Notes: generated by a model not told the origin, from the sequence alone. Positions 16,794 to 56,086 are shown, counted from the first letter of the stretch. The stretch is DNA of 58,817 bases from an uncultured Verrucomicrobiota bacterium (GCA_964458765.1 CAYWKN010000001.1:1-58817), one strand, 5' to 3'. Made by a program: numbers and translations.

Positions 16794-16861
16794 CCCGCCG
16801 TGGCGGGAGATGGTATATACAGCGCCATGGCAAAGCCGAAGACATCCAACGGGAGCGGGTA

Positions 16862-19659: not shown

Positions 19660-19663
19660 TCCC

Positions 19664-27408: not shown

Positions 27409-29238
27409 ATGCACTTGGAACCTAATCTGCCAGGCACCCGTACGCTGCCCAATGTGCGCAACTTCTGCATCATAGCGCATATTGATCACGGGAAGTCCAC
27501 CTTGGCCGACCGCCTGCTCCAATTGACCAGGACGATCGATGACCGGGCGATGCGCGATCAGGTCCTTGACAACATGGATCTCGAGCGTGAGCGCGGCATC
27601 ACCATCAAGTGCCATCCGGTGACGATGCGATATGTCGCCAGGGACGGCGTTGAGTACGAGCTTAACTTGATCGACACTCCGGGACACGTGGATTTCACCT
27701 ATGAGGTTTCACGGAGCATGCTGGCGTGCGAGGGCGCGGTTCTGGTGGTGGATGCCGGGCAGGGTGTGGAAGCCCAGACGGTCGCCAACACGTACTTGGC
27801 GATCGAGAACAACCTGGAAATCCTCCCGGTGATCAACAAGGTCGACCTTCCCGGCGCCGATCCCGACGGAGTGTCCCGGCAGATCGAGGAAATCCTGTCC
27901 TTGCCGGCCATGGATGCGCTACGGATCAGCGCCAAGACCGGGGTAGGCATCGAAGGTGTCCTGGAAGCTGTTGTCGCCAAGCTGCCGCCGCCCGCCACCT
28001 GCGACGACGGCTATGTGAGGGCGCTTGTGTTTGACTCCGTGTATGACGCCTTCCGCGGAGTGGTCACGTATGTTCGCGTGGTGGACGGTGAGATCAAACC
28101 CGGCGACCGTATCCGCATGGTAGGCGGCAATCTGGACACGGAAATCAAGGAAGTTGGCCGATTCCGCCCGAAAATGGAGCCGGCGCCGTCCCTCAAGGCA
28201 GGGCAGGTGGGATACCTGATCGGAACCCTCAAGAGTGCCGCCGACATCCTGATCGGCGATACGATCACCATGGCCTCCAGGCCAACGCCCCGGCCGCTGC
28301 CGGGCATGAAGGAAATTCACCCGATGGTATTCAGCGGCTTGTATCCGGTGAATACCTCCGACTACGAGAAGCTGAAACAAAGCATGGACAAACTCCGCCT
28401 GAACGACAGCGCTTTTACCTATCAACCGGAATCCTCCGTGGCGCTGGGATTCGGTTTTCGCTGCGGGTTTCTGGGCCTGTTGCACCTGGAAGTGGTGCAG
28501 GAGCGTCTGCGCCGGGAGTTCGATCTGGATGTCATCAGCACCTATCCATCCGTGGTATACCGCGTTTTCCAGAAGGATGGAACGATGCTGGAGGTTGACA
28601 ACCCCATTCATCTACCGGATCAGATGCGCATTGATCACTTGGAAGAACCCATGATCAAGGCGTTTATCATCTGCCACAATGAGCACATCGGCGACGTTCT
28701 CCGGCTGGTGATGGACCGGCGCGGTGCGGTGGACAAGACAGAGACGCTGGATGTCAAGCGGGTGATGCTGACATGCGTCATGCCCCTTAATGAGATACTG
28801 ATTGATTTCCACGATTTCCTGAAGAGCGTGAGCCGCGGCTATGCGTCCATGGATTACGAAAACACGGGCTATGTCGCCAGCGATCTCGTCAAGATGGATA
28901 TCCTTCTGAATGGCGAGGTGGTGGACGCATTCTCTTGCATCATTCATCGTGACAAGGCTGTGTATCGCGGACGTCAGATGTGTGAAGCCCTGAAGGACGT
29001 GATCCCGCCTCATATGTTCGCGGTGCCTATCCAGGCCGCCATTAACAAGACGATCATCGCCCGTGAGACCATCCGGGCCATGCGCAAGGATGTCACCGCC
29101 AAGTGTTATGGCGGCGACATCACACGAAAACGGAAACTGCTGGAGCGGCAGAAGGAAGGAAAGAGGCGGATGAAGGAGATCGGGTCTGTCAATGTTCCGC
29201 AGGAAGCCTTCATTTCCGTGTTGAAGACCACGGGGTAA
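27409..29238 (+). CDS. lepA: Translation elongation factor 4
   Basis: 609 aa. G1 AHIDHGKST, G3 DTPGH, and the LepA C-terminal domain (KCYGGDITRKRKLLE). Confidence 0.96.
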   Translation: MHLEPNLPGTRTLPNVRNFCIIAHIDHGKSTLADRLLQLTRTIDDRAMRDQVLDNMDLERERGITIKCHPVTMRYVARDGVEYELNLIDTPGHVDFTYEVSRSMLACEGAVLVVDAGQGVEAQTVANTYLAIENNLEILPVINKVDLPGADPDGVSRQIEEILSLPAMDALRISAKTGVGIEGVLEAVVAKLPPPATCDDGYVRALVFDSVYDAFRGVVTYVRVVDGEIKPGDRIRMVGGNLDTEIKEVGRFRPKMEPAPSLKAGQVGYLIGTLKSAADILIGDTITMASRPTPRPLPGMKEIHPMVFSGLYPVNTSDYEKLKQSMDKLRLNDSAFTYQPESSVALGFGFRCGFLGLLHLEVVQERLRREFDLDVISTYPSVVYRVFQKDGTMLEVDNPIHLPDQMRIDHLEEPMIKAFIICHNEHIGDVLRLVMDRRGAVDKTETLDVKRVMLTCVMPLNEILIDFHDFLKSVSRGYASMDYENTGYVASDLVKMDILLNGEVVDAFSCIIHRDKAVYRGRQMCEALKDVIPPHMFAVPIQAAINKTIIARETIRAMRKDVTAKCYGGDITRKRKLLERQKEGKRRMKEIGSVNVPQEAFISVLKTTG

Positions 29239-29253
29239 TGGATTGGCAGGAGA

Positions 29254-30342
29254 ATGGTAATGACCGGTTTTTTCAAACGTCGGCGCCTGGTCAAGATCGC
29301 CCGGGAGTGGCTGCAGCATGCGCGCCTGTGCCGGGATACCCGGAGCGATATCGCGGAGCCGTCGGCAATGGAAGCACTGCTGGCGGCCGAAACACGTCTG
29401 CGGGAAGCCATTGACGACGGGCAGTTTGACCGCCTCGAGAAGGAATGCGAGGCGTTGCGGCAAGCCGCTTCCCGGGTGATGCCGGCGCGCTCCATGGCGG
29501 GACTGCGGGAGAATCTGGAAGTGATTGTTGTGGCGCTTGGCGTGGCCATGGCCTTTCGCTGCTATTTTCTTCAGCCGTTCAAGATCCCAACCGGCTCGAT
29601 GCAGCCTACCTTGTATGGTATCCACTACGAACCGCAGGAGCGGGCTGGAACTTTTGACCAGCATCCGCTACGCGTGGTCAAGTGGGCCTTGTTCGGGGAA
29701 TGGTACGTCGAGAGCAAGGCTCTGACGGCCGGACGTGTGAGAGGCCCGTTGGAGCAGGGTGGGATGCTCATCTATGACATCGGCGGGTTGGTTCATCCGG
29801 TTCCGCGGGGCATGACGGTGCGCGTCAGTGCCGGTGATGAGGTGGTCAGCGGCCAGGTGATTGCTTCCGGGAAGCGGATTACGGGAGACCATCTCTTTGT
29901 GAACCGGGTGAAGTGGAACTTCGTATGCCCCAGGAGGGGTGAAGTCATGGTGTTCCGGACAGACGGGATCCCGGCGTTAGATGACAAAAAGACGCACTAC
30001 ATCAAACGAATGTGCGGTTTACCCGGCGAGCGGATACGGATCGTTCCTCCTCATATTCTGGCTGACGAAAGACCAGTGGATGACGATGTGATGATCCGGG
30101 CCATCTCGAGCCGGGCTCCCGGGTATGCCGGGTATGTGCTGGCTGAGGGGGTGGGGGCCGAATATCTGGTGACCACGAACGATGTCCTGGCGCTCAAGTG
30201 TGGCGAGTATCTGGCATGCGGCGACAACACGCGCAACAGTTTTGATGGACGGTATTGGGGCCCCGTTCGCCAGGAGAATCTTGTGGGGCCCGCTGCCCTG
30301 GTGTACTGGCCGATCTCCCGGCGCATGGGTTTTATCCGCTAG
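29254..30342 (+). CDS. lepB: Signal peptidase I (long N-terminal region)
   Basis: 362 aa. Catalytic Ser box (IPTGSMQPTL), KR box (YIKRMCGLPGERI) and box E (GDNTRNSFDGRYWG). Confidence 0.9.
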   Translation: MVMTGFFKRRRLVKIAREWLQHARLCRDTRSDIAEPSAMEALLAAETRLREAIDDGQFDRLEKECEALRQAASRVMPARSMAGLRENLEVIVVALGVAMAFRCYFLQPFKIPTGSMQPTLYGIHYEPQERAGTFDQHPLRVVKWALFGEWYVESKALTAGRVRGPLEQGGMLIYDIGGLVHPVPRGMTVRVSAGDEVVSGQVIASGKRITGDHLFVNRVKWNFVCPRRGEVMVFRTDGIPALDDKKTHYIKRMCGLPGERIRIVPPHILADERPVDDDVMIRAISSRAPGYAGYVLAEGVGAEYLVTTNDVLALKCGEYLACGDNTRNSFDGRYWGPVRQENLVGPAALVYWPISRRMGFIR

Positions 30343-30457
30343 TGCCTTGCCGTGGTTCTGGCTCTGGTTACGCTAATCTGGTCCGGATGTCACAGCCGAG
30401 GCCGCCCGAACAGGCATATGACGTTGGCTTGTGAGCTTGCATAACGGCCTTTCCGTC

Positions 30458-30480
30458 GAAAGCGCGAAGAGCGCGATTTC
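30458..30480. terminator. Hairpin GAAAGCGCG-AAGAG-CGCGATTTC (8 of 9 bp) about 115 nt after lepB
   Basis: Read directly and followed by CCGAATTTCG. It is a weak terminator candidate usable from either strand. Confidence 0.3.
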
Positions 30481-30517
30481 CCGAATTTCGTGACATTCCC
30501 AACAATTGCGGGATAAG

Positions 30518-30547
30518 TTGCATGTTATAAACAATGTCGCATAATAT
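30518..30547 (+). promoter_or_regulatory. Strong sigma70-like promoter candidate inside an ORF-free convergent gap (TTGCAT-16 nt-CATAAT / TAATAT)
   Basis: TTGCAT at 30518-30523 and an overlapping CATAATAT at 30540-30547, in the most AT-rich patch of the window. No protein gene lies downstream on this strand. Confidence 0.45.
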
Positions 30548-30552
30548 ATCTT

Positions 30553-30870
30553 ATGTCTACTCCCGCGGTGCCCGAACCACAATATATGGGGGTTTCTGAT
30601 TCTCGACCTCAGGGGCCGGCATACCGGACTTCAGCGCGGAGCCTAGCCTTGCTTGGGAAATCCCGCATGAACCATGCCCCTGCAACTTCCGATGAACATC
30701 CCCGCGTTTGCGTTCCACTCTCGGCTCAGGCACACTGCGAGATCAGCGGCATTCCCTGACTTGCGCGCCTCCCAAGGGCAAAGTTCAGGCCAAACTGTTG
30801 CCCGGTGTTTCTGTCGGAGTGGATCCCGCGGGGACTCCTGCAATCGGCAAAGCCTGAACCCCGCCATCCT
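30553..30870 (+). ncRNA. Candidate unassigned structured RNA (boundaries and strand tentative)
   Basis: It lies downstream of the promoter above, in a 550-bp gap between two gene 3' ends. No ORF here has an RBS or GC3 bias. Possible long-range helices are UCCCGCGG (30561-68) with CCGCGGGG (30826-33) and GGGGUUU (30589-95) with GAACCCC (30856-62). Local hairpins include GGGCAA/TTGCCC (30776-30803). I could not match it to tmRNA, 6S, SRP or RNase P. Confidence 0.25.
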
Positions 30871-30894
30871 GCAGGCCGGTCCGCCACGGCCGCA

Positions 30895-31800
30895 TCACTG
30901 GTCCTTCATCTGGTAGACCTGCTTGCGTCGCTGGCCGTCCCGCTCTACCTCCAGCACCACGGCGCTCATCCGGTTCTTCAGGAACTCATCGATAAAGAAC
31001 TCCGCGCGACGCCTGCTTGTCATGTCCACGGAGTTCACCTGACGGACAATATCACGCTCGCTCAACCCGACCGCATCGAAGAATTCCCGCTCACCCTCGA
31101 TGCCCACGATGTAACCAGTGATCCGATTCTTGTCGTCTCTCACAGGTTTCATCGTGTCGAATATTGCGACCATTCGGTCCGGTTCATCCAGCAGCTCCTG
31201 GTAGTAGTCCAGAAGCGGCTGACGGCTGAACTGCCAGCGATCGTCCTTCACCTTCACGCATCCGAAACGATTAGTGGTTCCAGGCGCTGTTGTCGCGAGA
31301 TTCGTTGACGGTGCGTCCACTCCAGCAACTCCCGGGGAGAATTCCAACTTCAGTTCTGTCAAACCCGCTGCCGTTTGAAGTGTCACGCTGTCGCGGGCAA
31401 TCGCAACCACGCAACCCTCCGCCACCTTGTCCCCTTCCCCGACGATCTTCTGCTCAGACGTAACCGTATCGTCCAAAATGGCCCTTGGGCGTCTATTCCC
31501 TTCCTCGGTTTCGACAGAGAAGGTTCCTGCCAGACGATAGCGCGCAGACGCTGAAGGTGCGGCTGGTTCTTCCTGCTTTCTGGAGGAGACCAGCACCGCG
31601 GTGGAAGCGGTTTCGAATCCGGCATAGCTGACTGCCGCCGGAACAAGCGAAACAGGCATGGACTCGCCTGCGTCACCTGCCGTCCGCGGCGTCGATGAGC
31701 GCCATGCCCGGAAATACACGATGCCGCAAGCCACGGTCATGAGCAACAGCAAAGGGGGTAGGATCCGCGATCGGGAAGAATGTCGGAAGGTAGAGGCCAT
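30895..31800 (-). CDS. GspC/PilP-like type II secretion protein C homolog (TM anchor + HR domain + C-terminal PDZ-like region)
   Basis: 301 aa. Basic N-terminus plus TM helix (ILPPLLLLMTVACGIVYF). An HR-domain-like stretch (YRLAGTF...RPRAILDD...KIVGEGDKVAEGCVVAIARDSVTLQTAAGLTELKL) is followed by a PDZ-like tail. The ATG at 31800 falls inside the rnpB 3' end, so the start is uncertain. Confidence 0.6.
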   Translation of the reverse strand: MASTFRHSSRSRILPPLLLLMTVACGIVYFRAWRSSTPRTAGDAGESMPVSLVPAAVSYAGFETASTAVLVSSRKQEEPAAPSASARYRLAGTFSVETEEGNRRPRAILDDTVTSEQKIVGEGDKVAEGCVVAIARDSVTLQTAAGLTELKLEFSPGVAGVDAPSTNLATTAPGTTNRFGCVKVKDDRWQFSRQPLLDYYQELLDEPDRMVAIFDTMKPVRDDKNRITGYIVGIEGEREFFDAVGLSERDIVRQVNSVDMTSRRRAEFFIDEFLKNRMSAVVLEVERDGQRRKQVYQMKDQ

Positions 31801-37088: not shown

Positions 37089-37114
37089 AAAAAAGGGTGC
37101 CGCTCGGGGCACCC
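37089..37114 (-). terminator. Rho-independent terminator ending the 37143..41850 gene string
   Basis: Minus strand: GGGTGCC-CCGAGC-GGCACCC followed by TTTTTT, about 30 nt after the stop at 37143. Confidence 0.8.
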
Positions 37115-37142
37115 CTTCTCCTGATCCAGATCGTAGCGCCAA

Positions 37143-37511
37143 CTAGCGTTTCTTGCTCGTCGCCGCTTTTGTGGTGGTCTTGGAAGTCGTCTTCTGGGTC
37201 TGGGCCGCCTTCGCAGCCTCGGCCTTCTTCTTCATTTCCTCCTGGACCCGCATCTGGTGTTGACGCGTCCACTCCAGTGCCGTCCGGCGCAGCTTATCGG
37301 CTTCCATCATAACGCGCTGCGCATCCGTGCGTACCTGATCGAGTTCCACGCGGATCTGGTCGCGTTCCTGCGTTAGCCTCTCGCATTCCTTGCCGCGTTT
37401 CGAAGCCATGACCGATGCCGCAATGGCCCATATCAGCACTACGGCTGTCACCGCCGACAAAAACATAACCGCGGAATTCTTCGGCTCTCTCAACGATTCA
37501 TTTTCCATCAT
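37143..37511 (-). CDS. Small single-pass membrane protein with coiled coil and a Lys/Thr/Ala-rich basic tail
   Basis: The track ORF is 37143..37592. The start is taken at MMENESL..., after an AGGAGA RBS. TM helix (VMFLSAVTAVVLIWAIAASVMA), a heptad region, and the tail KKKAEAAKAAQTQKTTSKTTTKAATSKKR. I recognise no family. Confidence 0.55.
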   Translation of the reverse strand: MMENESLREPKNSAVMFLSAVTAVVLIWAIAASVMASKRGKECERLTQERDQIRVELDQVRTDAQRVMMEADKLRRTALEWTRQHQMRVQEEMKKKAEAAKAAQTQKTTSKTTTKAATSKKR

Positions 37512-37619
37512 GTGATTCTCCTGATCGTTTCCGTCTGTGTTGGCACAAAAAGTGATGCCACTATCATACATCGGAACGGCGATGACAAGCACAATTGTGT
37601 TTTTTTGCCATACAGGTTT

Positions 37620-39167
37620 CTAACGGGGTTCCATTCCTGCCAGTGCCTCAATCCGTTCGCCGCACGCCTCCCGGAAGCGCCAAAACGCCAGACTTTCCGA
37701 ACGCCTTGCTTGCAGGGCGGCGCGCTGCGCCTGCAGTTTCATTTCCGTGACCGCAAGCTGCTCCTCGGGGCCTAGGAGTCCGGCTTCCTCCATCTGTCGC
37801 CCCAGGTGTTCCGCCTGATTCTCCACATCCGCCAGCCCGGCCTGACATTCTTTGGTCCGTTCCCTGGCATTCAGCCAGAGGAAACGGGCATTGCCAAATT
37901 CCGCTCCCGCCCGACGCAAGGTCTCCCGCAGTACCTGGGCGCAGCGCGCCAGTTCCGTCCGTTCCATGCGCGTTGCCCCCCCGTAAAACGAGAAGACGGG
38001 AATCTCCACAGCCGCCTCGATGCTCCATTCCTCGTCCTCGCTGTCATCGACGGCGATCTGGCTGTCGGGCGTCAACCCGGAGGGCGCCCCTGAGAGTGCG
38101 GCGATCGCGTCCTTCTCTTCCCCGGTTGTGCCGCGGCCATACGAACCCTGCACATGCGACAGCCACGGAATGCGGCGCGCCTTTGCCTCCCGCAGTGTCG
38201 CCATGGCGCCCTGGTGCCTCCAATAGGCCGCCACGACCTCCTGGCGTGATTCCATCCACCGGAATTCCAGGCCGGCCAAGGCCGTCAACGGCACTTCCGG
38301 CTCCCCTTCGATCTCCGCCGCCTCCCCTTCCAAAGAGGCGCCCGACAGATCGAAGACGGCCTGCAGCTTCTCCCGCAACAATTCTTCGATGACCGCCACA
38401 TCCTCCGTGGCGCGCAGGTGGCGCTGCCGCGCGTCCAATTGGTCGAGAGCCGAGCCTTGGTTATGCTGCAACCGCGCGATAACAGCCGCTGTATATTCCC
38501 TGCGCACTTCCGCCTGCTGGCAGGCAATCCGCAGTTCCCGCCGCAGTGTCCGGATCTCCGACAACAGTCTCCCTATGGCGCATTCGAGCCGCCACTCCGC
38601 TGCCCGGAGGTCGGCCGTCGCTGCGGCGAAACGGGCACGTGCTCCCGCGCCCTGGGCGCGCAGGAGCCAGGGATTCGGGGGAAACAATCGAAGACCCAGG
38701 CGAACGACATCCGACTCGGACTCACGCTTCCGAACATCTGCGGCTGGCCGCCAGTCCACACCACCCCCGTTCGCCGCGCCGGAAGGCTGATACCAAGTGC
38801 GCCCGGTGTATCGGCTCCCCTCCCCGTATTCCATGCGCAGTTCGGGATTCCGCAATCCCGTTACCGTGATCGCTTCCGCGCGCGCCGCCTCAACCGCACC
38901 CCGGAGTGTCAGGATTTCCGGATTATGCTGGCAGGCCGAATTCACGAGTGCCGCCAAGGTCAACGGTGTATGAGCCGCGGCAGCCGTTTCCATCAGGGCC
39001 AGAGGAGGTTCTGGCACCGCACCACTTGCGGCGGCCCCCTGGGAGACAACGCGTAGTGAGCTGCAGCCAACCAGGGTGCAACCGGCGGCAGTCAGCCACA
39101 TGGCGGAAGCAGCCCTCCAAACATTCCAGTCCCGCCACGCACGTTCCATGGAAGGCGCTTTCTTCAT
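37620..39167 (-). CDS. TolC-family outer-membrane efflux protein (lipoprotein-type signal)
   Basis: The track ORF is 37620..39212. The start is taken at MKKAPSME..., whose ATG overlaps the HlyD stop (ATGA). A signal/lipobox-like LTAAGC or LVGCSS is followed by two long alpha-helical OEP-like repeats. Confidence 0.75.
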   Translation of the reverse strand: MKKAPSMERAWRDWNVWRAASAMWLTAAGCTLVGCSSLRVVSQGAAASGAVPEPPLALMETAAAAHTPLTLAALVNSACQHNPEILTLRGAVEAARAEAITVTGLRNPELRMEYGEGSRYTGRTWYQPSGAANGGGVDWRPAADVRKRESESDVVRLGLRLFPPNPWLLRAQGAGARARFAAATADLRAAEWRLECAIGRLLSEIRTLRRELRIACQQAEVRREYTAAVIARLQHNQGSALDQLDARQRHLRATEDVAVIEELLREKLQAVFDLSGASLEGEAAEIEGEPEVPLTALAGLEFRWMESRQEVVAAYWRHQGAMATLREAKARRIPWLSHVQGSYGRGTTGEEKDAIAALSGAPSGLTPDSQIAVDDSEDEEWSIEAAVEIPVFSFYGGATRMERTELARCAQVLRETLRRAGAEFGNARFLWLNARERTKECQAGLADVENQAEHLGRQMEEAGLLGPEEQLAVTEMKLQAQRAALQARRSESLAFWRFREACGERIEALAGMEPR

Positions 39168-40333
39168 GGCCGATCCACGAGGGCGCCAATGGCTCGCAGC
39201 ACAGGTGCCCACAGGGGAGACCGCAGTCGAATCTGCACGGTCTCGCCGGGCAACAGGTCGGTCGGGCCGGCAAGCTCACAGAAAATGCGTCTTCCCCGCA
39301 TGACACGGCCGGGCACCGGGTTTACCTGGCCCGGCAATCCGCGAATGGCCGGCTCCAGGGACGAAACCGTGGCCGGGTATGATTTTCCCATGCCGTACAT
39401 CCGCTCCACCCACACAGCATGCCCCGGCATGGCTTCACGCGCATTCAGCTCCGGTATGAATCCGACGACTCGGGTGGAAGGCGTTTCAATCACAACCAGG
39501 ACGGGCAGTCCCGCGGCAATCACATCGCCCGGACGGAACATTACCTGCGAAACCGTGCCCTCCGAGGGACTTCGCAAGACATATTCCCGCCGGCGTGCTT
39601 CCAGTCCGGCCACGATCATGGCCTGGGCAACGGCCTGCAGATTGGTGCCGGAGCCGGTCCGTCCAGGCAGCCGAAGCGCAGACTTTGCATCGTCATATTG
39701 CCGCCGCGTCTCCGCCACCCGGCTCCGGAGTCCCTCCAGAGTCTCCGGATACAGTGCGACAGCCCTGCTGAGTGCCGCATGACGCGCCCGGACGGCGCCC
39801 ACGGTCGCGGCATCCACCAGACGCCGTTCCAGCAGGGGCTCCAGCCGCTTCAGTTCACGCGTCACCACTTCCAGTTCGGCCTCATCCTGGGCCTGGCGCA
39901 TGCGTTGTTCGTCGAGGGCAACAGCGGCCGCAGACATCGCGCCGGCAAACTGCCGTTCCCACTGCAGAGTGACCTGTTCCATTCCGGGCACGCTTCCCTG
40001 CAGTTCCGCGTAGGTGGCCTGCGCGGCGCCAACCTCGGTGTCAATCACCGACGCGTCCAGCCGGGCGAGAATCTGTCCGGCCTGGACTCGTGCGCCCACG
40101 GCGACTTCCACGGATTGGAGCCGCCCGAGTTCAAGGGATGCCACGGGATGTTCCACGATTTCCACGTAGCCTGGCACCCCCCCCGTGTGCGCCCCGTACA
40201 CAAAGAAGAGAACCCCCGCCACGGCCGCTGCTATCCATACCGCCACATGACTGTGGGCCTTCCACCGGCTCCACTGGACGCGGGCCGATCTCGCGGGATC
40301 ACCAGAGCCTCTGTTTGTCCGACCGTCCATCAT
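39164..40333 (-). CDS. HlyD-family periplasmic adaptor (membrane fusion protein)
   Basis: 389 aa. N-terminal TM helix, lipoyl-like hairpin motifs (VAVGARVQAGQILARLD ... GDVIAAGLPVLVV), a central coiled coil and a beta-barrel tail. It starts 3 nt after the DUF4956 stop. Confidence 0.85.
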   Translation of the reverse strand: MMDGRTNRGSGDPARSARVQWSRWKAHSHVAVWIAAAVAGVLFFVYGAHTGGVPGYVEIVEHPVASLELGRLQSVEVAVGARVQAGQILARLDASVIDTEVGAAQATYAELQGSVPGMEQVTLQWERQFAGAMSAAAVALDEQRMRQAQDEAELEVVTRELKRLEPLLERRLVDAATVGAVRARHAALSRAVALYPETLEGLRSRVAETRRQYDDAKSALRLPGRTGSGTNLQAVAQAMIVAGLEARRREYVLRSPSEGTVSQVMFRPGDVIAAGLPVLVVIETPSTRVVGFIPELNAREAMPGHAVWVERMYGMGKSYPATVSSLEPAIRGLPGQVNPVPGRVMRGRRIFCELAGPTDLLPGETVQIRLRSPLWAPVLRAIGALVDRP

Positions 40334-40336
40334 GGC

Positions 40337-41017
40337 CTATAGCTCCACCGTAGACCGCTGCATGAGCATACTCACATTCCTGAGTCCAGCCTGTTCCTGA
40401 AATGCCTTCACCAGCGGTCCCTGTCCGGAAGGATCCCGAAGGCGGATGTGGTAGGAATACTCGCGCCCTTCGCCTTGAATGGCATCGCGAACGGCAATCA
40501 GTTCCCAACTGGAACAGTAAGCCTCAAACGTCGCGGATGCCTTGTTTGCCATTCCCTCTTCCATGGCCACAAAACGCAGTAAACCTTCATAATCGCGCCG
40601 GGAGGTGAACGGAGCCAGGTGGAGGAACCATGCCACAAGGCCAAATCCCACAGTCCCCACGATGGCGACCGAAAACACAGCCGCTCCGCAGGAAATCCCG
40701 ACGGCAAGGGTGGCGAAAAGGAACACGATATCCCGCGGGTCGCGGATGTGTGTGCGGAAACGGATAATCGCCAGGGTGCCGAGAATACCCAATCCCCGCG
40801 CCAGATTGTTGCCTATCGCCATGATCATCACCGAGGAGATGAACCCGCTGAGTATGAGCGTTTGGACGAAAGACCGGGAATAGGACAACCCCTCGTAGGT
40901 CTTGCGATATATCCAGGCGATCAGCGAGCAGAGGACAAAACTGGCCAGCAATCCGGAAACGATCTGGCCAACACCCAGCACGCGCGCCGGCCCGAAAATA
41001 GTCAGGAATTCATCCAT
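40337..41017 (-). CDS. DUF4956 family integral membrane protein
   Basis: The track ORF is 40337..41053. The start is taken at MDEFLTIFG (GGAAGG RBS), with M1 at 41053 as an alternative. Four or five TM helices include the family hallmark GLGILGTLAIIRFRT, followed by a soluble C-terminal domain. Confidence 0.8.
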   Translation of the reverse strand: MDEFLTIFGPARVLGVGQIVSGLLASFVLCSLIAWIYRKTYEGLSYSRSFVQTLILSGFISSVMIMAIGNNLARGLGILGTLAIIRFRTHIRDPRDIVFLFATLAVGISCGAAVFSVAIVGTVGFGLVAWFLHLAPFTSRRDYEGLLRFVAMEEGMANKASATFEAYCSSWELIAVRDAIQGEGREYSYHIRLRDPSGQGPLVKAFQEQAGLRNVSMLMQRSTVEL

Positions 41018-41049
41018 TGTGCCGCACCTTCCCTTCGGATCCATTCCCC

Positions 41050-41850
41050 TCAATAGTCCTGCAATACGGCAGCATAGGCTGGTGCCCCCACGGTCCCGCG
41101 GAACAGGGTCTCGCAGGAAACAGCGGTAGAATACTTGCAGTTCCCGTCACGTACAAGATCGAACTCTTTCGTCAGATCGCTCATCCATCGCGGTGCATCA
41201 CCGGTAGTCTTCAACTCGAGAATGACGCCTGACCAGGGCTCCAGCTTGTTCTGGGTCAGCGAGTCATCCATCACGATCCATTTTCGCCCCTCCCCGAGCA
41301 GGTCCCAGTCTTCCGCGGGTTGGTATTCCAAATGGCGGTCGAAACTCACGCGCGCATAGTCTTCCCCGACACCGAAATAGGACTCGCGCACGTAGCGGAT
41401 CCGGACCACCGGTTCCGCCTGGATCTGACGGGCCAACCGGAGGAATGTCAGAAAGGCCACGTATTCCTTGTCCGAGGCAAATGGCAAGCGCACGCGGGTA
41501 TCCCGGAGCAAGTGTTCCCCCCAATCCCGGCGGTTAATGCGTGCACGGCTCTTGACCACTACAGAGCCGAACTTCCGTTTCACCTCCAGGAATACGGGGC
41601 TGTCCTGTCCGTCATAGGTTCGCACCCGCAATTTGAAACGGTTGAGTCGTTCCTCCTTCTTGGCTCGGTGAAGGGGGAAGCCAGGTCCATCCAGTTGAAG
41701 AGTGATAATGGTGTAGGATGGCGGATCAGACTTCCCGTGAGGGTCCGGCCGGCAAAACGGGGCGATATGGCGCCGAATGGGAGCCACAAGTCCGGCAGGA
41801 ATGACATACTTTGCCTCATGCCGGACCAAGACTGGCGTATTTGCGGTCAT
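41050..41850 (-). CDS. VTC-domain protein (polyphosphate polymerase / triphosphate-tunnel family)
   Basis: The track ORF is 41050..41991. The start is taken at MTANTPVLVRHEAKYVI. The tunnel-fold basic pattern HEAKY...FKLRVRTY...FLEVKRK...VKSR...RIRYVRE matches bacterial VTC-domain proteins, which usually pair with DUF4956. Confidence 0.8.
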   Translation of the reverse strand: MTANTPVLVRHEAKYVIPAGLVAPIRRHIAPFCRPDPHGKSDPPSYTIITLQLDGPGFPLHRAKKEERLNRFKLRVRTYDGQDSPVFLEVKRKFGSVVVKSRARINRRDWGEHLLRDTRVRLPFASDKEYVAFLTFLRLARQIQAEPVVRIRYVRESYFGVGEDYARVSFDRHLEYQPAEDWDLLGEGRKWIVMDDSLTQNKLEPWSGVILELKTTGDAPRWMSDLTKEFDLVRDGNCKYSTAVSCETLFRGTVGAPAYAAVLQDY

Positions 41851-41989
41851 TCTGGCGGCATGATACTTAGTCGATCGACCTCCCGCAAGCGCCACTGAAG
41901 GAGGCGGGAATGTCTTTGGTGCCGGAAAACCGGACGTGATACAGTGCCAGAGAGACAGAGGTACAGTGTCTGGGACAACAGGAGCAACC

Positions 41990-42241
41990 ATGAAATCCGC
42001 CCTTTTCGTCGTCGCGATATGCCTTCTTGTTTCTGCGGGGTGTTCTGACGCTCCCGAACCGCAATCCCAAAGGACTGAGTCCTCTCCCGTTGGTCAGCCG
42101 CCCGCCGAAAGAAGCACGTTACAGACTGTGGTTGGGGGACTTACGGGACAAACCGCGGTCGAGAGGGGCAAGGAGGCACGTACGAAAATCCAAGCTGCTG
42201 CCAGCAACAAGAACTCCTCACTCAACGAAGTACTGCGCTAG
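41990..42241 (+). CDS. Small putative lipoprotein
   Basis: The track ORF is 41936..42241. The ATG at 41990 follows an AGGAG RBS and gives MKSALFVVAICLLVSAGCSD (signal peptide plus lipobox). It is 83 aa with no recognisable family. Confidence 0.5.
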   Translation: MKSALFVVAICLLVSAGCSDAPEPQSQRTESSPVGQPPAERSTLQTVVGGLTGQTAVERGKEARTKIQAAASNKNSSLNEVLR

Positions 42242-49826: not shown

Positions 49827-51155
49827 CTAGTTTCCGGCCGCAGGCGCCTTGTCCACGGACTCGACATCCTTGCCCTTGATCGTGCGAAAGATTCCCGGCC
49901 TGGTCTCCACCTCGATATCGCCATCCGGGAATCGTCGTCCCGCAACTCCCGAAACCGTTTCCCCTGACTTCAGCCGTACCACCGTATCCGCGACGAAATT
50001 TCGCTTGAGAATCTCCCGGAGCCGGACGACCTCGCCTTGCACGATCGCTATTCTCTTCTCCAGGGATGTATACCCCTTCTTCCGCAACTCGACTGTATGC
50101 TCACCCACCCCAACCTCGATCCGCAACGGATCGGTGGGCTTGTCCGTTCCCGCCGGGAACGCCCCCCGCTCCACACCGTCCACCAGGACCGACAGACCGG
50201 GCTGCTCGGCGATCACCTCGAGCATTCCCACCTTTCGCACCAGCGTGAACTCCTCCACGCGTGTATCCCTCCGCTTCACCTCCACGACACGCGTCTGGCT
50301 CTCATGGCCCTCCAGTTCGACTTTCAATGTGTAGGTTCCGGGAGGGATCGCATCCAGCGTCAACGGCGATTGCCCCCGCAGCCGCTCATCCACAAAGACC
50401 TTGGCTCCGGCAGGCGTACAGACGACCGACAGCGTGGCGGGGAGCGGCTGGAGCGTGACCTGGACAGTGTGGTCTTCCCCGGCGCGGAGCTTCACCGTAT
50501 CCTGATACGCCAGATACTCTGCCAGGGTCAGGGCGACTCTATTATCCCCGCTCGGAAGGCGCTCGATGATGCACGGAGTCACGCCTTTGGAAAGTCCGTT
50601 CACCGTCACGGCTGCCCCAGGCGGCGTGGACTGCACCGTCAGATTCGCCGAATCCGAAGTTAGCGACAGGAGCACCCGGCGGGGCGCACGGTTTTCCACC
50701 AGAAGGTCCACCTCCTGGCTCAGGTAACCGACGGACGAAGCCCGTACGCGGTATCGGCCAAGGGGCAAATCCGTGATCAAGAGCGGCGTCCTGCCGCGGT
50801 TCGCCCCGTCGATCAAGATCTCGGCCTCGCTGGGCGCGGAGTGGATCAAGACCAAACCCTTCTCCGGTTCCAGCCGCAGTTCCAAAGCTGCCTTTTGCCC
50901 GGGACTGAGTGTGACCGTCCGCCGGGCGGGCAGATGGCCCGCCAGATCCGCCTGGATCAGATGCGGTCCGCCCGACAGGTTGTCCAGCACTACCGGGGTC
51001 TGGTCGCGCAGGATGCCATCGCATGTCACCGCCGCGCCTTCGGGGATCGAGGTAACGCGAAGCTGGGCCGGGGCGTCCAGCGCCAGACAGCGGAACGTCC
51101 CGGCGCCCAACGTTACGATCAGCCCCATGCTCCACGCTTTGGTCAACATTCTCAT
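49827..51155 (-). CDS. Secreted multi-PEGA-domain protein
   Basis: The track ORF is 49827..51251. The start is taken at MRMLTKAWSMGLIV..., whose ATG overlaps the upstream stop (ATGA). A signal peptide is followed by about 5-6 PEGA-like repeats (S.P.GA.V..DG...G.TP........G.H......GY). Confidence 0.75.
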   Translation of the reverse strand: MRMLTKAWSMGLIVTLGAGTFRCLALDAPAQLRVTSIPEGAAVTCDGILRDQTPVVLDNLSGGPHLIQADLAGHLPARRTVTLSPGQKAALELRLEPEKGLVLIHSAPSEAEILIDGANRGRTPLLITDLPLGRYRVRASSVGYLSQEVDLLVENRAPRRVLLSLTSDSANLTVQSTPPGAAVTVNGLSKGVTPCIIERLPSGDNRVALTLAEYLAYQDTVKLRAGEDHTVQVTLQPLPATLSVVCTPAGAKVFVDERLRGQSPLTLDAIPPGTYTLKVELEGHESQTRVVEVKRRDTRVEEFTLVRKVGMLEVIAEQPGLSVLVDGVERGAFPAGTDKPTDPLRIEVGVGEHTVELRKKGYTSLEKRIAIVQGEVVRLREILKRNFVADTVVRLKSGETVSGVAGRRFPDGDIEVETRPGIFRTIKGKDVESVDKAPAAGN

Positions 51156-52459
51156 GGCTTCTTTTCCGTTGCGAGACGCCGTTCCACATCCACCAGTTTC
51201 CTGTAGGCATTGCGGTGCCGCTCGTCCGACCGGTCCTGGATCATTTCGCACACCTGCCGCAGTTGCACTGCGGCTTCCCGCCAGTCGCGCAACTTGACGC
51301 TTCGCTCGGCCATGAACCAGATGTTGTCGTAGCGTCGCTGCAGTTCGCGTTCACTATCCGCCCGGCCCGTCAGGATCTCGGCGTAGAAATCCGGCTTCGG
51401 TTCGATGGTCTCCAGGCACCATTCCGCCTCCGTGAAGGACCGGATGGCGCGTGCGAGATTTCCGGGATCCACCTCCCGCTCCTCATACAGCTTCCGGCCC
51501 AAGAGGAAAGATTCCCGGGCACGGTTCTGAAGTTCCCCCGGCTCTATCGCCAGAGCCGCCAGGCCGAGCTCATTCTTGCTGAATTCCTCAAGCTGGCTGC
51601 GAAACCGTGCCACCCCTTCCGGCTCGACTTGGTTGAGCACACGAACACGATGCGTCCGGCTGCCGATGGTTACACTGACATCAGTGGATTCGTGGATTCC
51701 CGGAGCCACTCCCTCGTACTCGGAGAGCAGGTCAAAGAACCCCGCCTGCTCGCATACCCGACCGAGTTCCTCCAGAAGTTCCGGCGCCACCTTCTTTTCC
51801 CGTCGTACGTGCCTGTCGCTGGCAAGATCATCCACCTGTACCACCAAACGGTTCTGCGTGATGGACATGTAGAACCGGAAGATATTGGAGACGCTGCCCT
51901 GGACCCGTTCAAAAACGACATCGAATTCGGGAAGCTGCCCCGCGATGGCCTGCTTCGGGGATTCCGACGCCGAACGGCGCAGCGCCCCCGTGACCCACTG
52001 GCGCCAAGGAAGCCAGGCCAGGAGGGAAATCAGGACCATGACGGCCAATGCGCCATAGAGCCAGCGGCGCAGTGGCTTCGCGTTCGCCATCCCCCCACCC
52101 TTGCCGAAGCCGAGATTGATTCCGGACTCTCCAGGAGCACCCGGCGGCGCTTCCTCCCGCCGGTCATGGGTCACCCGCATGGTCGTTTCCCCGAGGCTGC
52201 ACCTGTCACCGACGGCTAGCTTTCGCTCCTCAACCTCGGCATCATTCACCACCGTCCCGTTGGCGCTTCCCAGGTCCGAAATCCACAACTGCCCACCATC
52301 GTCGAAATACAGGCGGCAATGGAAACGCGACAGGGCCGGATCTTCCATCGAAATGTCGTTGCGGGAGGATCTGCCGATCCGGATGCCCGCCGCGGGAACA
52401 AGGATTTCGCGCCCCTTTTCCGGACCGCTTTCCACTATCAGATGCACATGCCTGGCCAT
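51152..52459 (-). CDS. FHA-domain protein with a central TM helix and a large C-terminal helical domain
   Basis: The track ORF is 51152..52489. The start is taken at MARHVHLIV. FHA signature (IRIGRSSRNDISMEDPALSRFHCRLYFDDGGQLWISDLGSANGTVVND), a TM helix (WLYGALAVMVLISLLAWLPW), then about 270 aa that are unassigned or TPR-like. Confidence 0.75.
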   Translation of the reverse strand: MARHVHLIVESGPEKGREILVPAAGIRIGRSSRNDISMEDPALSRFHCRLYFDDGGQLWISDLGSANGTVVNDAEVEERKLAVGDRCSLGETTMRVTHDRREEAPPGAPGESGINLGFGKGGGMANAKPLRRWLYGALAVMVLISLLAWLPWRQWVTGALRRSASESPKQAIAGQLPEFDVVFERVQGSVSNIFRFYMSITQNRLVVQVDDLASDRHVRREKKVAPELLEELGRVCEQAGFFDLLSEYEGVAPGIHESTDVSVTIGSRTHRVRVLNQVEPEGVARFRSQLEEFSKNELGLAALAIEPGELQNRARESFLLGRKLYEEREVDPGNLARAIRSFTEAEWCLETIEPKPDFYAEILTGRADSERELQRRYDNIWFMAERSVKLRDWREAAVQLRQVCEMIQDRSDERHRNAYRKLVDVERRLATEKKP

Positions 52460-52542
52460 AGTCACACCGCCGCTGAAGTTGCCCAACAATAAGGCCCGCA
52501 GCTGAAGCTGTCAACAAGCCCGCACGCCCCCGCCCGGTTGCC

Positions 52543-53472
52543 TCAGAACTGCCTCAACACCTGTAGGATGATCGGACCCAACAACACCAGGAATACCGCC
52601 GGGAAAATGAACGCCACCAGGGGGAAAAGCATCTTGACCGGCGCCTCGTTGGCCAGTTTCTCGGCCCGCTCAAACCGCCGCTGACGCATCTGATCCGCCT
52701 GGATCCGCAGGATCGCCGCAATGCCGACGCCCAGCTCATCCGCCTGCACCAAGGCGTTCACAACGGAATGCACATCCCGGTGATCCACCCGCTCGGCCAT
52801 GTCGCGCAGGGCATCCCGGCGCGTCTTGCCAAGCTGGATCTCCCGCAGGACCCTGATGAATTCCTCGCCCAGGGCATCCATGCGACGGCGCTCGACGATG
52901 CGCTGTATGGCATTCATGAAATCCAGCCCGGCCTCTACCGAAAGGGTCAGCAGATCCATCACAAACGGCAGTGCCCGCTGGATTTGCCGCTGACGAGCCT
53001 TGAGAACTCCGTTCAACCACACGACCGGATAGACACAGTACCCGCCAAGGATGGCCACGACAAACAGGGTCTGGTGTTCCCGCAATGCGAGCCCGGCACG
53101 GCCGGGCACCATGGCAAACACAGCCCACACAAGGGTAACGGCCAGGGAACCCAGCAGGACAGGAAGCAGGACCCGCAGCGCCAGGAATTCCTCGGCCGTG
53201 AGAGCGCCCGCAAAACCTGCCGCCACAATCCGGCGGTTTACCCGGTCGCAAGCCGCGCGGAACCGGGGCTTCTCAAAGATCGGCGTCAGGTTCGGCGCCA
53301 GCGGCAGCAGCAGGCGGAACACGAACGGAACCGACCGCTCCTCCCTGCACCCGTCGGCGAGGGTCACATACGTGACCGACCGCAGCACCTGGGCACACTG
53401 CCAGGCGGCCAGTGCGGCAAAGCAGCCCCAGACTGCGCTCAACCCCCAAAGTGCCATTGCATCGCCATTCAT
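52543..53472 (-). CDS. tadC: Tad/Flp pilus platform protein TadC (T2SS F family)
   Basis: 309 aa. The T2SSF domain is recognisable (LPFVMDLLTLSVEAGLDFMNAIQRIV...LGKTRRDALRDMAERV...ELGVGIAAILRIQADQMR). Confidence 0.85.
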   Translation of the reverse strand: MNGDAMALWGLSAVWGCFAALAAWQCAQVLRSVTYVTLADGCREERSVPFVFRLLLPLAPNLTPIFEKPRFRAACDRVNRRIVAAGFAGALTAEEFLALRVLLPVLLGSLAVTLVWAVFAMVPGRAGLALREHQTLFVVAILGGYCVYPVVWLNGVLKARQRQIQRALPFVMDLLTLSVEAGLDFMNAIQRIVERRRMDALGEEFIRVLREIQLGKTRRDALRDMAERVDHRDVHSVVNALVQADELGVGIAAILRIQADQMRQRRFERAEKLANEAPVKMLFPLVAFIFPAVFLVLLGPIILQVLRQF

Positions 53473-53477
53473 GATGC

Positions 53478-54365
53478 CTACACGTCAATACGGATGATTT
53501 TCGCGATCACCAGTCCGCCAAGGACTTCCAGGGCAACTACAACCCCGAGAAGCAAAAGCCCGAAACCCGAATGCAGGAACGCCACCATCATCACGGGATC
53601 GAGCACATACATGGCGAATCCCAGCAACAGCGGCATGAGCCCCACCACGATCCCCTGCAGCCTGCCCTGGGCCGTCAGTGTCCAGATCCGCTGCTCGATC
53701 CGCATCCGCTCCCGGATCGTGTGCGCGATCTTCTCGAAAACCTCCGTCAGATTGCCGCCGGTCTGCCGGGCGGTTTCGATCGCCCCGACCATCAGCGCCA
53801 GATCTTCGCTGCCCACACGTTCCTGCATGCTCTGCAACGCCTCATCCATCCGCATGCCCACCCGCGTCTGGTGCAGGAAAGTCCCGAATTCCTGCGAGAT
53901 GGGGTTCTGGCGCTCGCGGACCACAAGTTCAAACGCCTGCTGTATGCTGAAACCGGCCTTCAGCGCATTACTCATGCCGACCAGGCTGTCCACCAGTTGC
54001 AGATTGAACCGACGCAACCGCCTGTGCCGGAGCACCCGAAGCGCTGTCCGGGGAATGTTCCAGCCGCCGGCCCCCGCAGCCAGTCCCACTAGCATGCCTG
54101 CCGCGAACGAACGCCCCTCGAATCCGCCGGTCAGAAGAAATCCCAGCAGAAAACACACGCACGCCGAAGTCATTGCCAGCTCCAGTACGCGACGCGGCGG
54201 AATGAACAGGAAGAGATCCTCCATCTGTCTGGCCGTGAACTCGGAGTACGATACCGCGTACTCCGCCGCCGCGGCCTGCAGCGACCGCAGGATCGAATAG
54301 GCCAGTCCGCCTATGCTGAGCATGTACAGCAACGGCAGGGTCCACATGGCGGCCGCTTCCGTCAT
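53478..54365 (-). CDS. tadB: Tad/Flp pilus platform protein TadB (T2SS F family)
   Basis: 295 aa. The T2SSF domain is recognisable (LVDSLVGMSNALKAGFSIQQAFELVV...ALQSMQERVGSEDLALMVGAIETARQTGGNL). The start overlaps the cpaF stop (ATGA). Confidence 0.85.
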   Translation of the reverse strand: MTEAAAMWTLPLLYMLSIGGLAYSILRSLQAAAAEYAVSYSEFTARQMEDLFLFIPPRRVLELAMTSACVCFLLGFLLTGGFEGRSFAAGMLVGLAAGAGGWNIPRTALRVLRHRRLRRFNLQLVDSLVGMSNALKAGFSIQQAFELVVRERQNPISQEFGTFLHQTRVGMRMDEALQSMQERVGSEDLALMVGAIETARQTGGNLTEVFEKIAHTIRERMRIEQRIWTLTAQGRLQGIVVGLMPLLLGFAMYVLDPVMMVAFLHSGFGLLLLGVVVALEVLGGLVIAKIIRIDV

Positions 54366-56053
54366 GCACCACCCCGCTTCTGTTCAAACAGGCTGAAATC
54401 CACAGCCATGCCCCGCGCCTTCAACTCCTCCAGGAACGTGGGCACTGCGCCAGTGGCCTGGAACTGTCCCGCTACCCTGCCCTGGCCGTCCACGCCTTTC
54501 TGAACAAACAGGAAAATGTCCTGCATCGTGGTCCGGTCCCCTTCCAGCCCCACCACTTCCGAAACGTGCGTCACCTTGCGCGATCCGTCGCTGAATCGTG
54601 ACTCGTGGATGATAATGTCCACCGCCGCGGCTATCTGTTCACGGATCGCCCGAACCGGAAGGTCCATGCCCGACATCAGCACCAGTGTCTCCAAGCGCGA
54701 CATCACGTCCCGCGGCGAATTGGCATGGACAGTGGTCAGGGACCCGTCATGCCCCGTATTCATCGCCTGGAGCATGTCCAGCGCCTCGCCCCCGCGGCAC
54801 TCCCCCACCACAATCCGATCCGGACGCATGCGCAGCGAGTTGCGCACCAGATCCCGGATCGTCACCGCTCCCTTACCCTCAATATTCGGCGCCCGCGATT
54901 CCAGCGATACCACGTGTGCCTGTTTCAATTGAAGTTCCGCTGCATCCTCGATGGTGATGATCCGTTCGTTTTCGGGCAGGAAACTGCTCAATACGTTCAG
55001 CAGCGTTGTCTTGCCCGAGCCGGTTCCGCCGGACACGATGATGTTCCGCCGCGATACCACGCAGGCCCTCACAAAGTCTCGCATGGCGGCCGACCAGGTG
55101 CCCAGCCGGATCAACTCTTCCTCCGTCAACGGCTGCTTGGCGAACTTCCGGATGGTCAGGCAGGGGCCGCTCAACGACAGGGGGTGCATGATGGCGTTGA
55201 CCCGCGAACCGTCCTTGAGGCGCGCATCCACGTATGGCTGGCTTTCGTCAATACGCCGCCCCAACGGCGACACGATCCTCTCGATCACGGCCATCACCGA
55301 CTTGTCGTCGAGAAAAGTTCGGTCTGTCAACTCGATCTTGCCGTTCCGTTCCACGTAGACCCGCGACGGACCGTTGACCATGACTTCGGTAACGGAGGCA
55401 TCCGCCAGCAGATCCTCCAGCGGGCCAAGCCCGACGGCCTCGTCATACAATTCCTTGACCAGGCTTTGCGGCACGATGTCCGGCGGCAGCTTCGGGGCCA
55501 CTTCCCGGACGATCCCTTCCAAGGTGGAAAGAACGCGCCGATGCAGTTCGGCGTCTTCCACGTGTGAGGCCGTCAGCCTCTTGATGTCCAGCCTCTCGAT
55601 CAGCTCCTGATGAATCTGCCGTTTCACGGTCTGCCGCCGGGTGAGCAGGCGGTCGTCCCGTGCGGTTGGCTCCGGAGCGGTCGCGCCGCCCACTGGTTCC
55701 TGCACATTGGGTGTTGCGACCGCGGGCGGCAAAACGACATCGGGTTCAGACTTCGGCTCCGGCTTACGCCGGTGCACACGAAGCAGGACAGAGCCCATCC
55801 GGATGTCCTGGCCGTCCAGGACTTCCGCCCGGCCCCGGACGGTGTGTCCGCTCACAGTCGTCTTCCCCATGCTCAAGTCCTCGACCCAGCATCCGCCCGG
55901 CCGGAGGCACACGATCGCATGTCGGCGGGCCACGTCGCCGCCCGTCACGACAACCTGGTTCTCGCGGTCGGAGCCCACGGAGTAGATGCCGGTCTCAAGT
56001 TCCCGCCATTGTTCCTGGGCATCCGTCTGCCTGATTTCGAGAAACATGTTCAT
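54362..56053 (-). CDS. cpaF: CpaF/TadA secretion ATPase with an N-terminal FHA domain
   Basis: 563 aa. Residues ~1-95 are FHA-like (YSVGSDRENQVVVTGGDVARRHAIV...WVEDLSMGKTTVSGHTV), followed by a Pro-rich linker and a typical CpaF core (Walker A GGTGSGKTTLLN, ERIITIEDAAEL, GHDGSLTTVHANS). Confidence 0.88.
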   Translation of the reverse strand: MNMFLEIRQTDAQEQWRELETGIYSVGSDRENQVVVTGGDVARRHAIVCLRPGGCWVEDLSMGKTTVSGHTVRGRAEVLDGQDIRMGSVLLRVHRRKPEPKSEPDVVLPPAVATPNVQEPVGGATAPEPTARDDRLLTRRQTVKRQIHQELIERLDIKRLTASHVEDAELHRRVLSTLEGIVREVAPKLPPDIVPQSLVKELYDEAVGLGPLEDLLADASVTEVMVNGPSRVYVERNGKIELTDRTFLDDKSVMAVIERIVSPLGRRIDESQPYVDARLKDGSRVNAIMHPLSLSGPCLTIRKFAKQPLTEEELIRLGTWSAAMRDFVRACVVSRRNIIVSGGTGSGKTTLLNVLSSFLPENERIITIEDAAELQLKQAHVVSLESRAPNIEGKGAVTIRDLVRNSLRMRPDRIVVGECRGGEALDMLQAMNTGHDGSLTTVHANSPRDVMSRLETLVLMSGMDLPVRAIREQIAAAVDIIIHESRFSDGSRKVTHVSEVVGLEGDRTTMQDIFLFVQKGVDGQGRVAGQFQATGAVPTFLEELKARGMAVDFSLFEQKRGGA

Positions 56054-56086
56054 GCCGCCGTTCCCTCGCCGGGAAGCCTAATCCAA

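Follow-up and report, generated by a model that had tools for sequence, protein, structure and literature searches.

A cluster of four tightly packed genes in a 58,817-nt stretch of DNA from an uncultured Verrucomicrobiota bacterium (GCA_964458765.1, CAYWKN010000001.1:1-58817; henceforth "the window") probably encodes an undescribed machine for the synthesis and export of polyphosphate, because the same operon is kept in about 70 species of Verrucomicrobia, Kiritimatiellia and Lentisphaerae, without any ordinary pump gene nearby. The four genes encode a protein with the VTC domain, a member of the triphosphate tunnel metalloenzymes (TTM), a membrane protein of the DUF4956 family, a periplasmic adaptor (membrane fusion protein, MFP), and an outer-membrane factor (OMF), i.e. 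a duct of the TolC/NodT type. We estimate the probability at roughly 0.55 that their products form one envelope-spanning machine that makes polyphosphate and exports it, with the DUF4956 protein replacing the transporter; what we infer from the observations presented below is that the parts are physically coupled, that DUF4956 is the conduit and polyphosphate its cargo, and in which direction and by what energy the transport would proceed.

Organization of the operon

The original prediction had described four packed genes on the (-) strand, and all four open reading frames (ORFs) were re-found in the window with the coordinates and spacing given there, while the assignments to VTC, DUF4956, HlyD and OEP all passed profile searches. 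The gene of the VTC/TTM-domain protein (266 aa, 41050..41850, PF09359) is separated by a 32-nt gap from that of the MgtC-like DUF4956 membrane protein (226 aa, 40337..41017, PF16316), the proposed inner-membrane partner or conduit. After a further gap of just 3 nt comes the gene of the membrane-anchored, EmrA-like adaptor (389 aa, 39164..40333, HlyD_3), which shares a 4-nt ATGA overlap with the gene of the OMF (515 aa, 37620..39167, Pfam OEP). On the same strand they are followed by a small ORF (37143..37592, with the likely start codon ATG at 37511), which, on reading its sequence, encodes a single transmembrane helix and a coiled coil and ends in a basic tail. This ORF is present as it had been described, but its only homologue among the surveyed loci is in the closest relative and it has no family match in Pfam or NCBIfam profile searches; since it is conserved only there, it does not belong to the system in general and is best read as a lineage-specific passenger rather than as a core component.

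The operon ends with the single strong intrinsic terminator that had been noticed behind the small ORF (37089..37115, (-) strand), a hairpin of GGGUGCC and GGCACCC around a 6-nt loop, followed by U6, with an RNA folding energy of -24.4 kcal/mol (z=-2.75); an automated terminator scan overlooked it. A scan for sigma-70 promoters upstream of the VTC gene returned no useful match. The operon is surrounded by core housekeeping genes (ArgRS, phosphoglucomutase, MurJ, Rnf, PheT, GatAB, LepA), and therefore it sits in the chromosome backbone of a bacterium of the Planctomycetes-Verrucomicrobia-Chlamydiae (PVC) group. Its closest relatives are found in uncultured Verrucomicrobiota and PVC metagenome-assembled genomes (MAGs).

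Conservation of the gene linkage

To survey the distribution of the operon, an alignment of VTC orthologues was scanned against one genome per species, and the best 80 of 346 stretches with relatives were kept. The six-frame ORFs of these 80 loci were searched with the proteins of the window, and then with hidden Markov models (HMMs) built from the matches. Almost all of the surveyed loci are titled as Verrucomicrobiota, Kiritimatiellia, Lentisphaerota/Victivallales or unclassified PVC bacteria. With V standing for VTC, D for DUF4956, M for the adaptor and O for the duct, the order VDMO is found in 48 loci and VDM in 15. The order MOVD is found in three loci, plus one truncated OVD, while VDMMO (with a split adaptor), VDMOO and O...VDM are each found in two. 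Six loci contain VD only (two of them truncated at D), and one contains V only. Altogether, an adaptor and/or a duct gene adjoins the VTC-DUF4956 pair in 73 of the 78 informative PVC loci, so the adjacency is not a peculiarity of this genome, a case that would have counted against the original prediction. The flanking genes are unrelated between lineages, and at least three gene orders (VDMO, MOVD and O...VDM) keep the association, which speaks for selection acting on the linkage and against shared ancestry of one block.

The median intergenic gaps are 13 nt between V and D, 6 nt between D and M and -4 nt between M and O, all of them approximate, as the starts used are those of the longest ORFs. 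The D-M junction is the tightest. The adaptor is never found apart from DUF4956, while the duct gene moves: in two loci (L066 and L075) it is located 3-5 kb upstream on the opposite strand, and one coherent clade of DUF4956 proteins has no neighbouring OEP/duct gene. In canonical tripartite pumps the OMF gene is often unlinked, as in the case of AcrAB and EmrAB, with tolC located elsewhere, and the adaptor genes stand beside the genes of the transporters, as in emrAB and acrAB. A fixed adaptor and a mobile duct thus make the same linkage pattern as in the classical tripartite pumps, with DUF4956 in the place of the transporter. The DUF4956 proteins of the VD-only loci are nested and scattered within clades of VDMO loci, and because of this scatter these loci look like secondary losses or relocations of the remaining genes. 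One MAG of Kiritimatiellae (JAFGHX01, loci L015 and L019) has two VTC paralogues, one in a full VDMO cluster beside a giant CotH protein, and the other alone, without a detectable adjoining DUF4956 gene.

HlyD/TolC pairs are expected to have an ABC, RND or MFS transporter, and the lack of such a gene, noted in the original prediction, is confirmed for the operon in the window. The nearest gene of a polytopic protein is murJ, 396 nt upstream, with a small divergent ORF in between; MurJ was considered as a partner and rejected, because apart from the window only the closest relative has it next to the operon and because of the intervening ORF. This ORF (41936-42241, (+) strand) has no family match and encodes a lipoprotein-like signal (…LLVSAGCSD), and an ORF of 82 aa stands at the same spot in the closest relative. 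Within 4 kb of the core genes in the 80 loci, the single ORF that combines a Walker A motif with LSGGQ is UvrA, and the 28 ORFs with at least five hydrophobic segments show no recurrent family. Those polytopic ORFs that are adjacent and on the same strand correspond to OAD-beta, COX1, a Nuo/Mrp subunit, EamA, an ABC-importer permease, or have no Pfam match. Hence, no ABC, RND, MFS or PET inner-membrane transporter is recurrent in the 4-kb surroundings, to which the search was confined. Just downstream of one VDMO cluster (L058:14368-19345) we found a second, divergent pair of duct and adaptor genes followed by an ORF of 693 aa with seven hydrophobic segments, which is probably a conventional efflux system that happens to adjoin the cluster.

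Predicted functions of the four proteins

The VTC protein matches PF09359 over profile positions 2-231 of 235 (E=9e-30, 104 bits, cutoff 23). It comprises the VTC domain alone, without the SPX domain and the DUF202-type transmembrane domain of the eukaryotic Vtc4. For comparison we used the TTM domain of yeast Vtc4 (residues 198-481), whose sequence was confirmed to be identical to PDB 3g3q_A and 8i6v_E. Alignment of the orthologue family with this domain by hhalign gave a probability of 89% in the local mode and 94.8% in the global mode (83 sequences). Ten tunnel residues of Vtc4 are matched, namely R264, R266 and E426 (R75, R77 and E212 in the window protein) and seven others, of which six are basic and one is a tyrosine: K281 (K91), K294 (K100), R296 (R102), Y359 (Y153), R361 (R155), R373 (R167) and K428 (K214). 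An additional pair, K200 and K14, appears in the global alignment only, and the equivalent of K458 is ambiguous in register, as K239 of the window protein pairs with either K455 or K458. All of the aligned tunnel residues are identical in the window protein, and they are invariant or nearly so among 17 orthologues, so the degeneration of the catalytic residues that would have spoken against an active enzyme is not seen. The triple substitution R264A/R266A/E426N yields the catalytically impaired Vtc4 that was used for the cryo-EM structure of the VTC complex (PMC9911596). A phmmer search of the VTC protein against the PDB sequences found no match, and a narrow profile of the VTC orthologues found nothing in the PDB beyond weak matches to Vtc3 and Vtc2. 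The protein is predicted to be a cytoplasmic polyphosphate polymerase.

The DUF4956 protein matches PF16316 with E=4.5e-12 (46.5 bits, cutoff 30.6), and the MgtC profile only weakly (E=0.026, 15.3 bits, under the cutoff of 31.4 bits). In the AlphaFold2 (AF2) model, built from an alignment of 66 sequences with a predicted local distance difference test (pLDDT) score of 74, helices at residues 16-40, 48-68, 71-84, 94-111 and 115-134 are followed by a C-terminal β-α-β-β-α-β domain at 142-222. For the latter domain, the Foldseek matches include ACT domains (RelA/SpoT, IlvN), the C-terminal domain of NikR and the C-terminal domain of MgtC (2lqj), whereas the membrane part resembles no solved structure. 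Across 66-82 orthologues, the stretch GNNLARGLGILGTLAIIRFRTxIRDPRD is conserved almost without change. Five helices, an N-out/C-in topology and the positive-inside rule suggest that the Arg-rich loop would be located, together with the modelled ACT-like domain, at the predicted cytoplasmic face. A homologue from Streptococcus was likewise described as MgtC-like with an ACT domain (10.1101/2024.04.20.589940). At E<=1e-3, the family numbers 6,530 representative clusters in all.

The adaptor matches HlyD_3 above the cutoff (E=2e-6), and among the NCBIfam models it matches, always under the cutoff, TIGR00998 EmrA (E=7e-16) as well as HlyD and RND-adaptor models. Its AF2 model (pLDDT 81) exhibits an N-terminal transmembrane helix, a lipoyl domain, a long α-hairpin and a β-barrel, and lacks a membrane-proximal domain; the best Foldseek matches are EmrA (4tko, E=1e-17) and EmrAB-TolC (8zal/8zar), followed by MacA. 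Adaptors of the EmrA type serve inner-membrane partners without periplasmic domains, and therefore an adaptor of this type fits a small partner such as DUF4956. Low-information words dominated the homologue search with the adaptor, which returned 16 proteins, and a metagenome survey that started from it found three loci, including the source contig. A metagenomic contig of 8.9 kb (L085, JGI Ga0136653_10003239) carries the gene of an adaptor with 100% identity to that of the window, and is probably derived from the same organism or assembly source.

The OMF matches Pfam OEP with E=2e-10, and a profile of 33 OMF orthologues matches the lipoproteins SilC, VceC, OprJ and CusC of the OMF family over positions 171-503, with E-values from 1.6e-21 to 1e-14; in SilC, CusC and OprJ the match extends over most of the protein. 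An LVGC lipobox can be read from its translation, which makes it probably a lipoprotein.

A possible mechanism and its alternatives

In the mechanism that we propose, the cytoplasmic VTC/TTM enzyme would polymerise the γ-phosphate of ATP into polyphosphate, like Vtc4, and the nascent polyanion would be passed to the MgtC-like DUF4956 protein, which as an oligomer would stand in for the ABC, MFS or RND inner-membrane component of a tripartite pump. The EmrA-like adaptor would bridge DUF4956 to the NodT-type duct, allowing the chain to exit without entering the periplasm. Both the inside-negative membrane potential and the polymerisation itself would help to drive a polyanion outward. In many relatives the cluster also encodes giant secreted proteins with Lamin-tail domains (LTD) and a kinase domain of the CotH type, which would likely use or bind the product outside the cell.

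Several points weigh against this reading. Isolated TTM domains may be triphosphatases or cyclases, and for this reason polyphosphate is a putative product. Contacts of DUF4956 with the VTC protein or with the adaptor are likewise putative, and the model of DUF4956 is of moderate confidence, with the pLDDT of 74 falling to 55 in the conserved loop. No fusion of VTC with DUF4956 or of DUF4956 with the adaptor is found among the close homologues or among the best 150 DUF4956 representatives, each of which stands alone with a length of 111-284 aa; the VTC homologues (240-371 aa) likewise show no fusion. DUF4956 is unrelated to the channel domains of the DUF202 type found in VTC, and four to five genomes have VTC-DUF4956 without an adaptor and a duct nearby. 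MgtC, the relative of DUF4956, is known as a regulator and not as a transporter, and no clear phenotype resulted when the homologues in Streptococcus were deleted (both in 10.1101/2024.04.20.589940).

The DUF4956 protein, the adaptor and the duct could also export some other cargo, a small molecule or an ion, with the VTC protein energising or regulating the transport, either by hydrolysis of ATP or triphosphate or by way of polyphosphate kept inside the cell. The conserved linkage applies to such an exporter just as well, TTM enzymes are known to include hydrolases, and the modelled ACT-like domain of DUF4956 suggests a ligand-regulated behaviour. However, the residues conserved in the VTC protein are those of the polymerase-competent Vtc4, no known TTM energises a transporter, and five helices per protomer are few for a substrate-specific carrier, so that we regard this explanation as unlikely, even though polyphosphate was taken as cytoplasmic in the study on Streptococcus (10.1101/2024.04.20.589940).

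Alternatively, the adaptor and the duct might serve a conventional pump encoded elsewhere in the genome, in which case their co-transcription with VTC-DUF4956 would reflect only co-regulation, for example under phosphate or cation stress, and DUF4956 would be a regulator like MgtC. The loose linkage of OMF genes to pumps and the poor sequence conservation of the adaptor family would agree with this, and members of the MgtC family do regulate ATP synthase and PhoR (summarised in 10.1101/2024.04.20.589940). On the other hand, the linkage outlasts three rearranged gene orders and unrelated flanks, with no recurrent pump gene in the vicinity. Adaptor genes are nearly always found beside the gene of their inner-membrane partner, and it is DUF4956 that occupies this position in 72 loci, at a median distance of 6 nt, which renders a pump elsewhere quite improbable.

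A further reading is raised by the neighbours. Giant proteins (1,100-2,400 aa) that combine a signal peptide and several LTD domains with a CotH kinase domain occur inside or beside the cluster in 20 of the about 80 loci, directly after the duct gene (at 8-141 nt) in L072, L079, L080, L081, L083 and L084, and directly after the adaptor gene in L050 and L055; examples are L050:12853-18219, L055:12721-18489, L057:7138-12993, L072:5748-9299, L079:14322-20753 and L084:9005-15445. No CotH or LTD gene is found in the window or near most of the surveyed loci. The link is recurrent and had not been raised in the original prediction; outside the cell, the giants could plausibly use or bind the product. 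That the cluster instead serves to secrete or display these giants, with the polyphosphate of VTC-DUF4956 acting as an intracellular chaperone or energy source, we consider very improbable despite the six giants after OMF genes and the two after adaptor genes, since most loci, this window included, lack them, the giants begin with Sec-type signal peptides, and no type I ABC component is present.

Synthesis of polyphosphate coupled to its export therefore stays our preferred reading of the operon. It is also that of the original prediction, which finds partial support: of the computational checks suggested there, all that were run spoke for it. The bolder proposal that it represents a new trans-envelope class, the first dedicated secretion system for polyphosphate in Bacteria, whose polymer serves CotH kinases as a phosphoryl donor or an anchor in many lineages, is tentative, and we would give it somewhat less than even odds.

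Relationship to known systems

The eukaryotic VTC complex (Vtc4/Vtc3/Vtc1) couples the synthesis of polyphosphate to its translocation along a basic channel (PMC9911596). The operon shares with it the catalytic fold and the tunnel residues and, by analogy, the predicted ATP-fed synthesis in the cytoplasm coupled to passage of the chain via a co-encoded membrane partner. It differs by the lack of an SPX sensor, a fused transmembrane domain of the DUF202 type and a Vtc1-like subunit, by a membrane partner that is the unrelated, MgtC-like DUF4956, and by the addition of an adaptor and an outer-membrane duct, with the cell exterior instead of the vacuole as the proposed target. With EmrAB-TolC, other tripartite efflux pumps and type I secretion systems, it has in common an adaptor of EmrA architecture, a duct that belongs to the NodT/TolC family and the tight coupling of the adaptor gene to the gene of an inner-membrane protein. 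However, this inner-membrane part is not an ABC, MFS, RND or PET transporter, but a DUF4956 protein of about five helices combined with a polymer synthase.

Conceptually, the closest in mechanism are the synthase-dependent exopolymer systems, such as those of alginate (Alg8/Alg44/AlgK-E), cellulose (Bcs), poly-N-acetylglucosamine (Pga) and Pel, where extrusion via a dedicated trans-envelope path goes hand in hand with polymerisation at the inner membrane, as may be the case here by analogy. Alg44 even carries an MFP-like periplasmic domain. Unlike in these systems, the proposed polymer would be inorganic polyphosphate instead of a polysaccharide, a soluble TTM enzyme takes the place of the membrane glycosyltransferase, and a duct of the TolC type that of the β-barrel porin with a TPR scaffold.

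Genes of CotH, a polyphosphate polymerase and DUF4956 also adjoin pel operons of Gram-positive bacteria, where their function was given as unknown and no MFP or OMF genes are listed (10.1101/768473; 10.1101/2024.04.20.589940). The VTC-DUF4956 pair and its tie to secreted CotH kinases are the same as here, whereas in the loci analysed by us an MFP and an OMF are joined to the pair and CotH is optional. That these diderms add an adaptor and a duct is in keeping with a product that has to pass the outer membrane as well. Finally, MgtC/SapB proteins resemble DUF4956 in the weak profile match and in having, as modelled, about five transmembrane helices and a cytoplasmic ACT-like domain. However, the match is far under the MgtC cutoff, and MgtC is a regulator without known adaptor or duct partners.

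The original prediction knew of no described tripartite system built on VTC and DUF4956, and none was found by us: searches of open-access papers and bioRxiv returned no account of an adaptor and a duct linked to this pair. All parts thus come from known families, but their combination appears to be undescribed. To our knowledge, no machinery for the export of polyphosphate from bacterial cells is known. Some bacteria are reported to secrete this polymer (PMC10653871). If the proposed mechanism is true, a compact synthase-exporter would make the question of bacterial polyphosphate export directly testable, and the two widespread families of bacterial VTC-domain proteins and DUF4956 proteins would acquire a function. 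It would also add a new class of inner-membrane components to the tripartite (MFP/OMF) systems, provide a prokaryotic counterpart to the eukaryotic VTC polymerase-translocase, and suggest why secreted CotH kinases are accompanied by a polyphosphate polymerase.

Other neighbours and features of the window

Two other kinds of proteins recur in the vicinity of the surveyed operons. Proteins with a REC domain are encoded in 19 loci, but they were not counted as members of the system, being heterogeneous in size and position. Directly upstream of VTC and on the same strand, eight loci encode a protein that is typically about 470 aa long (range about 450-590 aa) and contains a C2H2-like motif besides a low-complexity stretch rich in Arg and Asp (e.g. 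L013:8346-9950, L017:8474-9910, L021:8331-9761, L061:8234-9661, L064:8537-9901 and L077:1204-2970). It has no Pfam match and could be a lineage-specific extra component.

Elsewhere in the window, the GC skew is positive from position 1 to about 30 kb and negative thereafter, with the cumulative peak near 30 kb (approximately 29000-31000), and the genes point toward the same position, on the (+) strand to the left of it and on the (-) strand to the right. The replication terminus probably lies within the window. At 10151-12553 on the (+) strand, 28 kb from the operon, there is a gene for an H+-translocating membrane pyrophosphatase (PF03030, E=3e-253), and no linkage between them is implied; pyrophosphate is the primer for polymerases of the Vtc4 type. 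A cluster for a pilus of the Tad/Flp type is located at 51152-56905 on the (-) strand and includes RcpC/CpaB, a T2SSE ATPase with an FHA domain, two T2SSF proteins and an FHA protein, while two tandem genes of type II secretion/type IV pilus ATPases with MshEN domains are found at 16790-21376 on the (+) strand.

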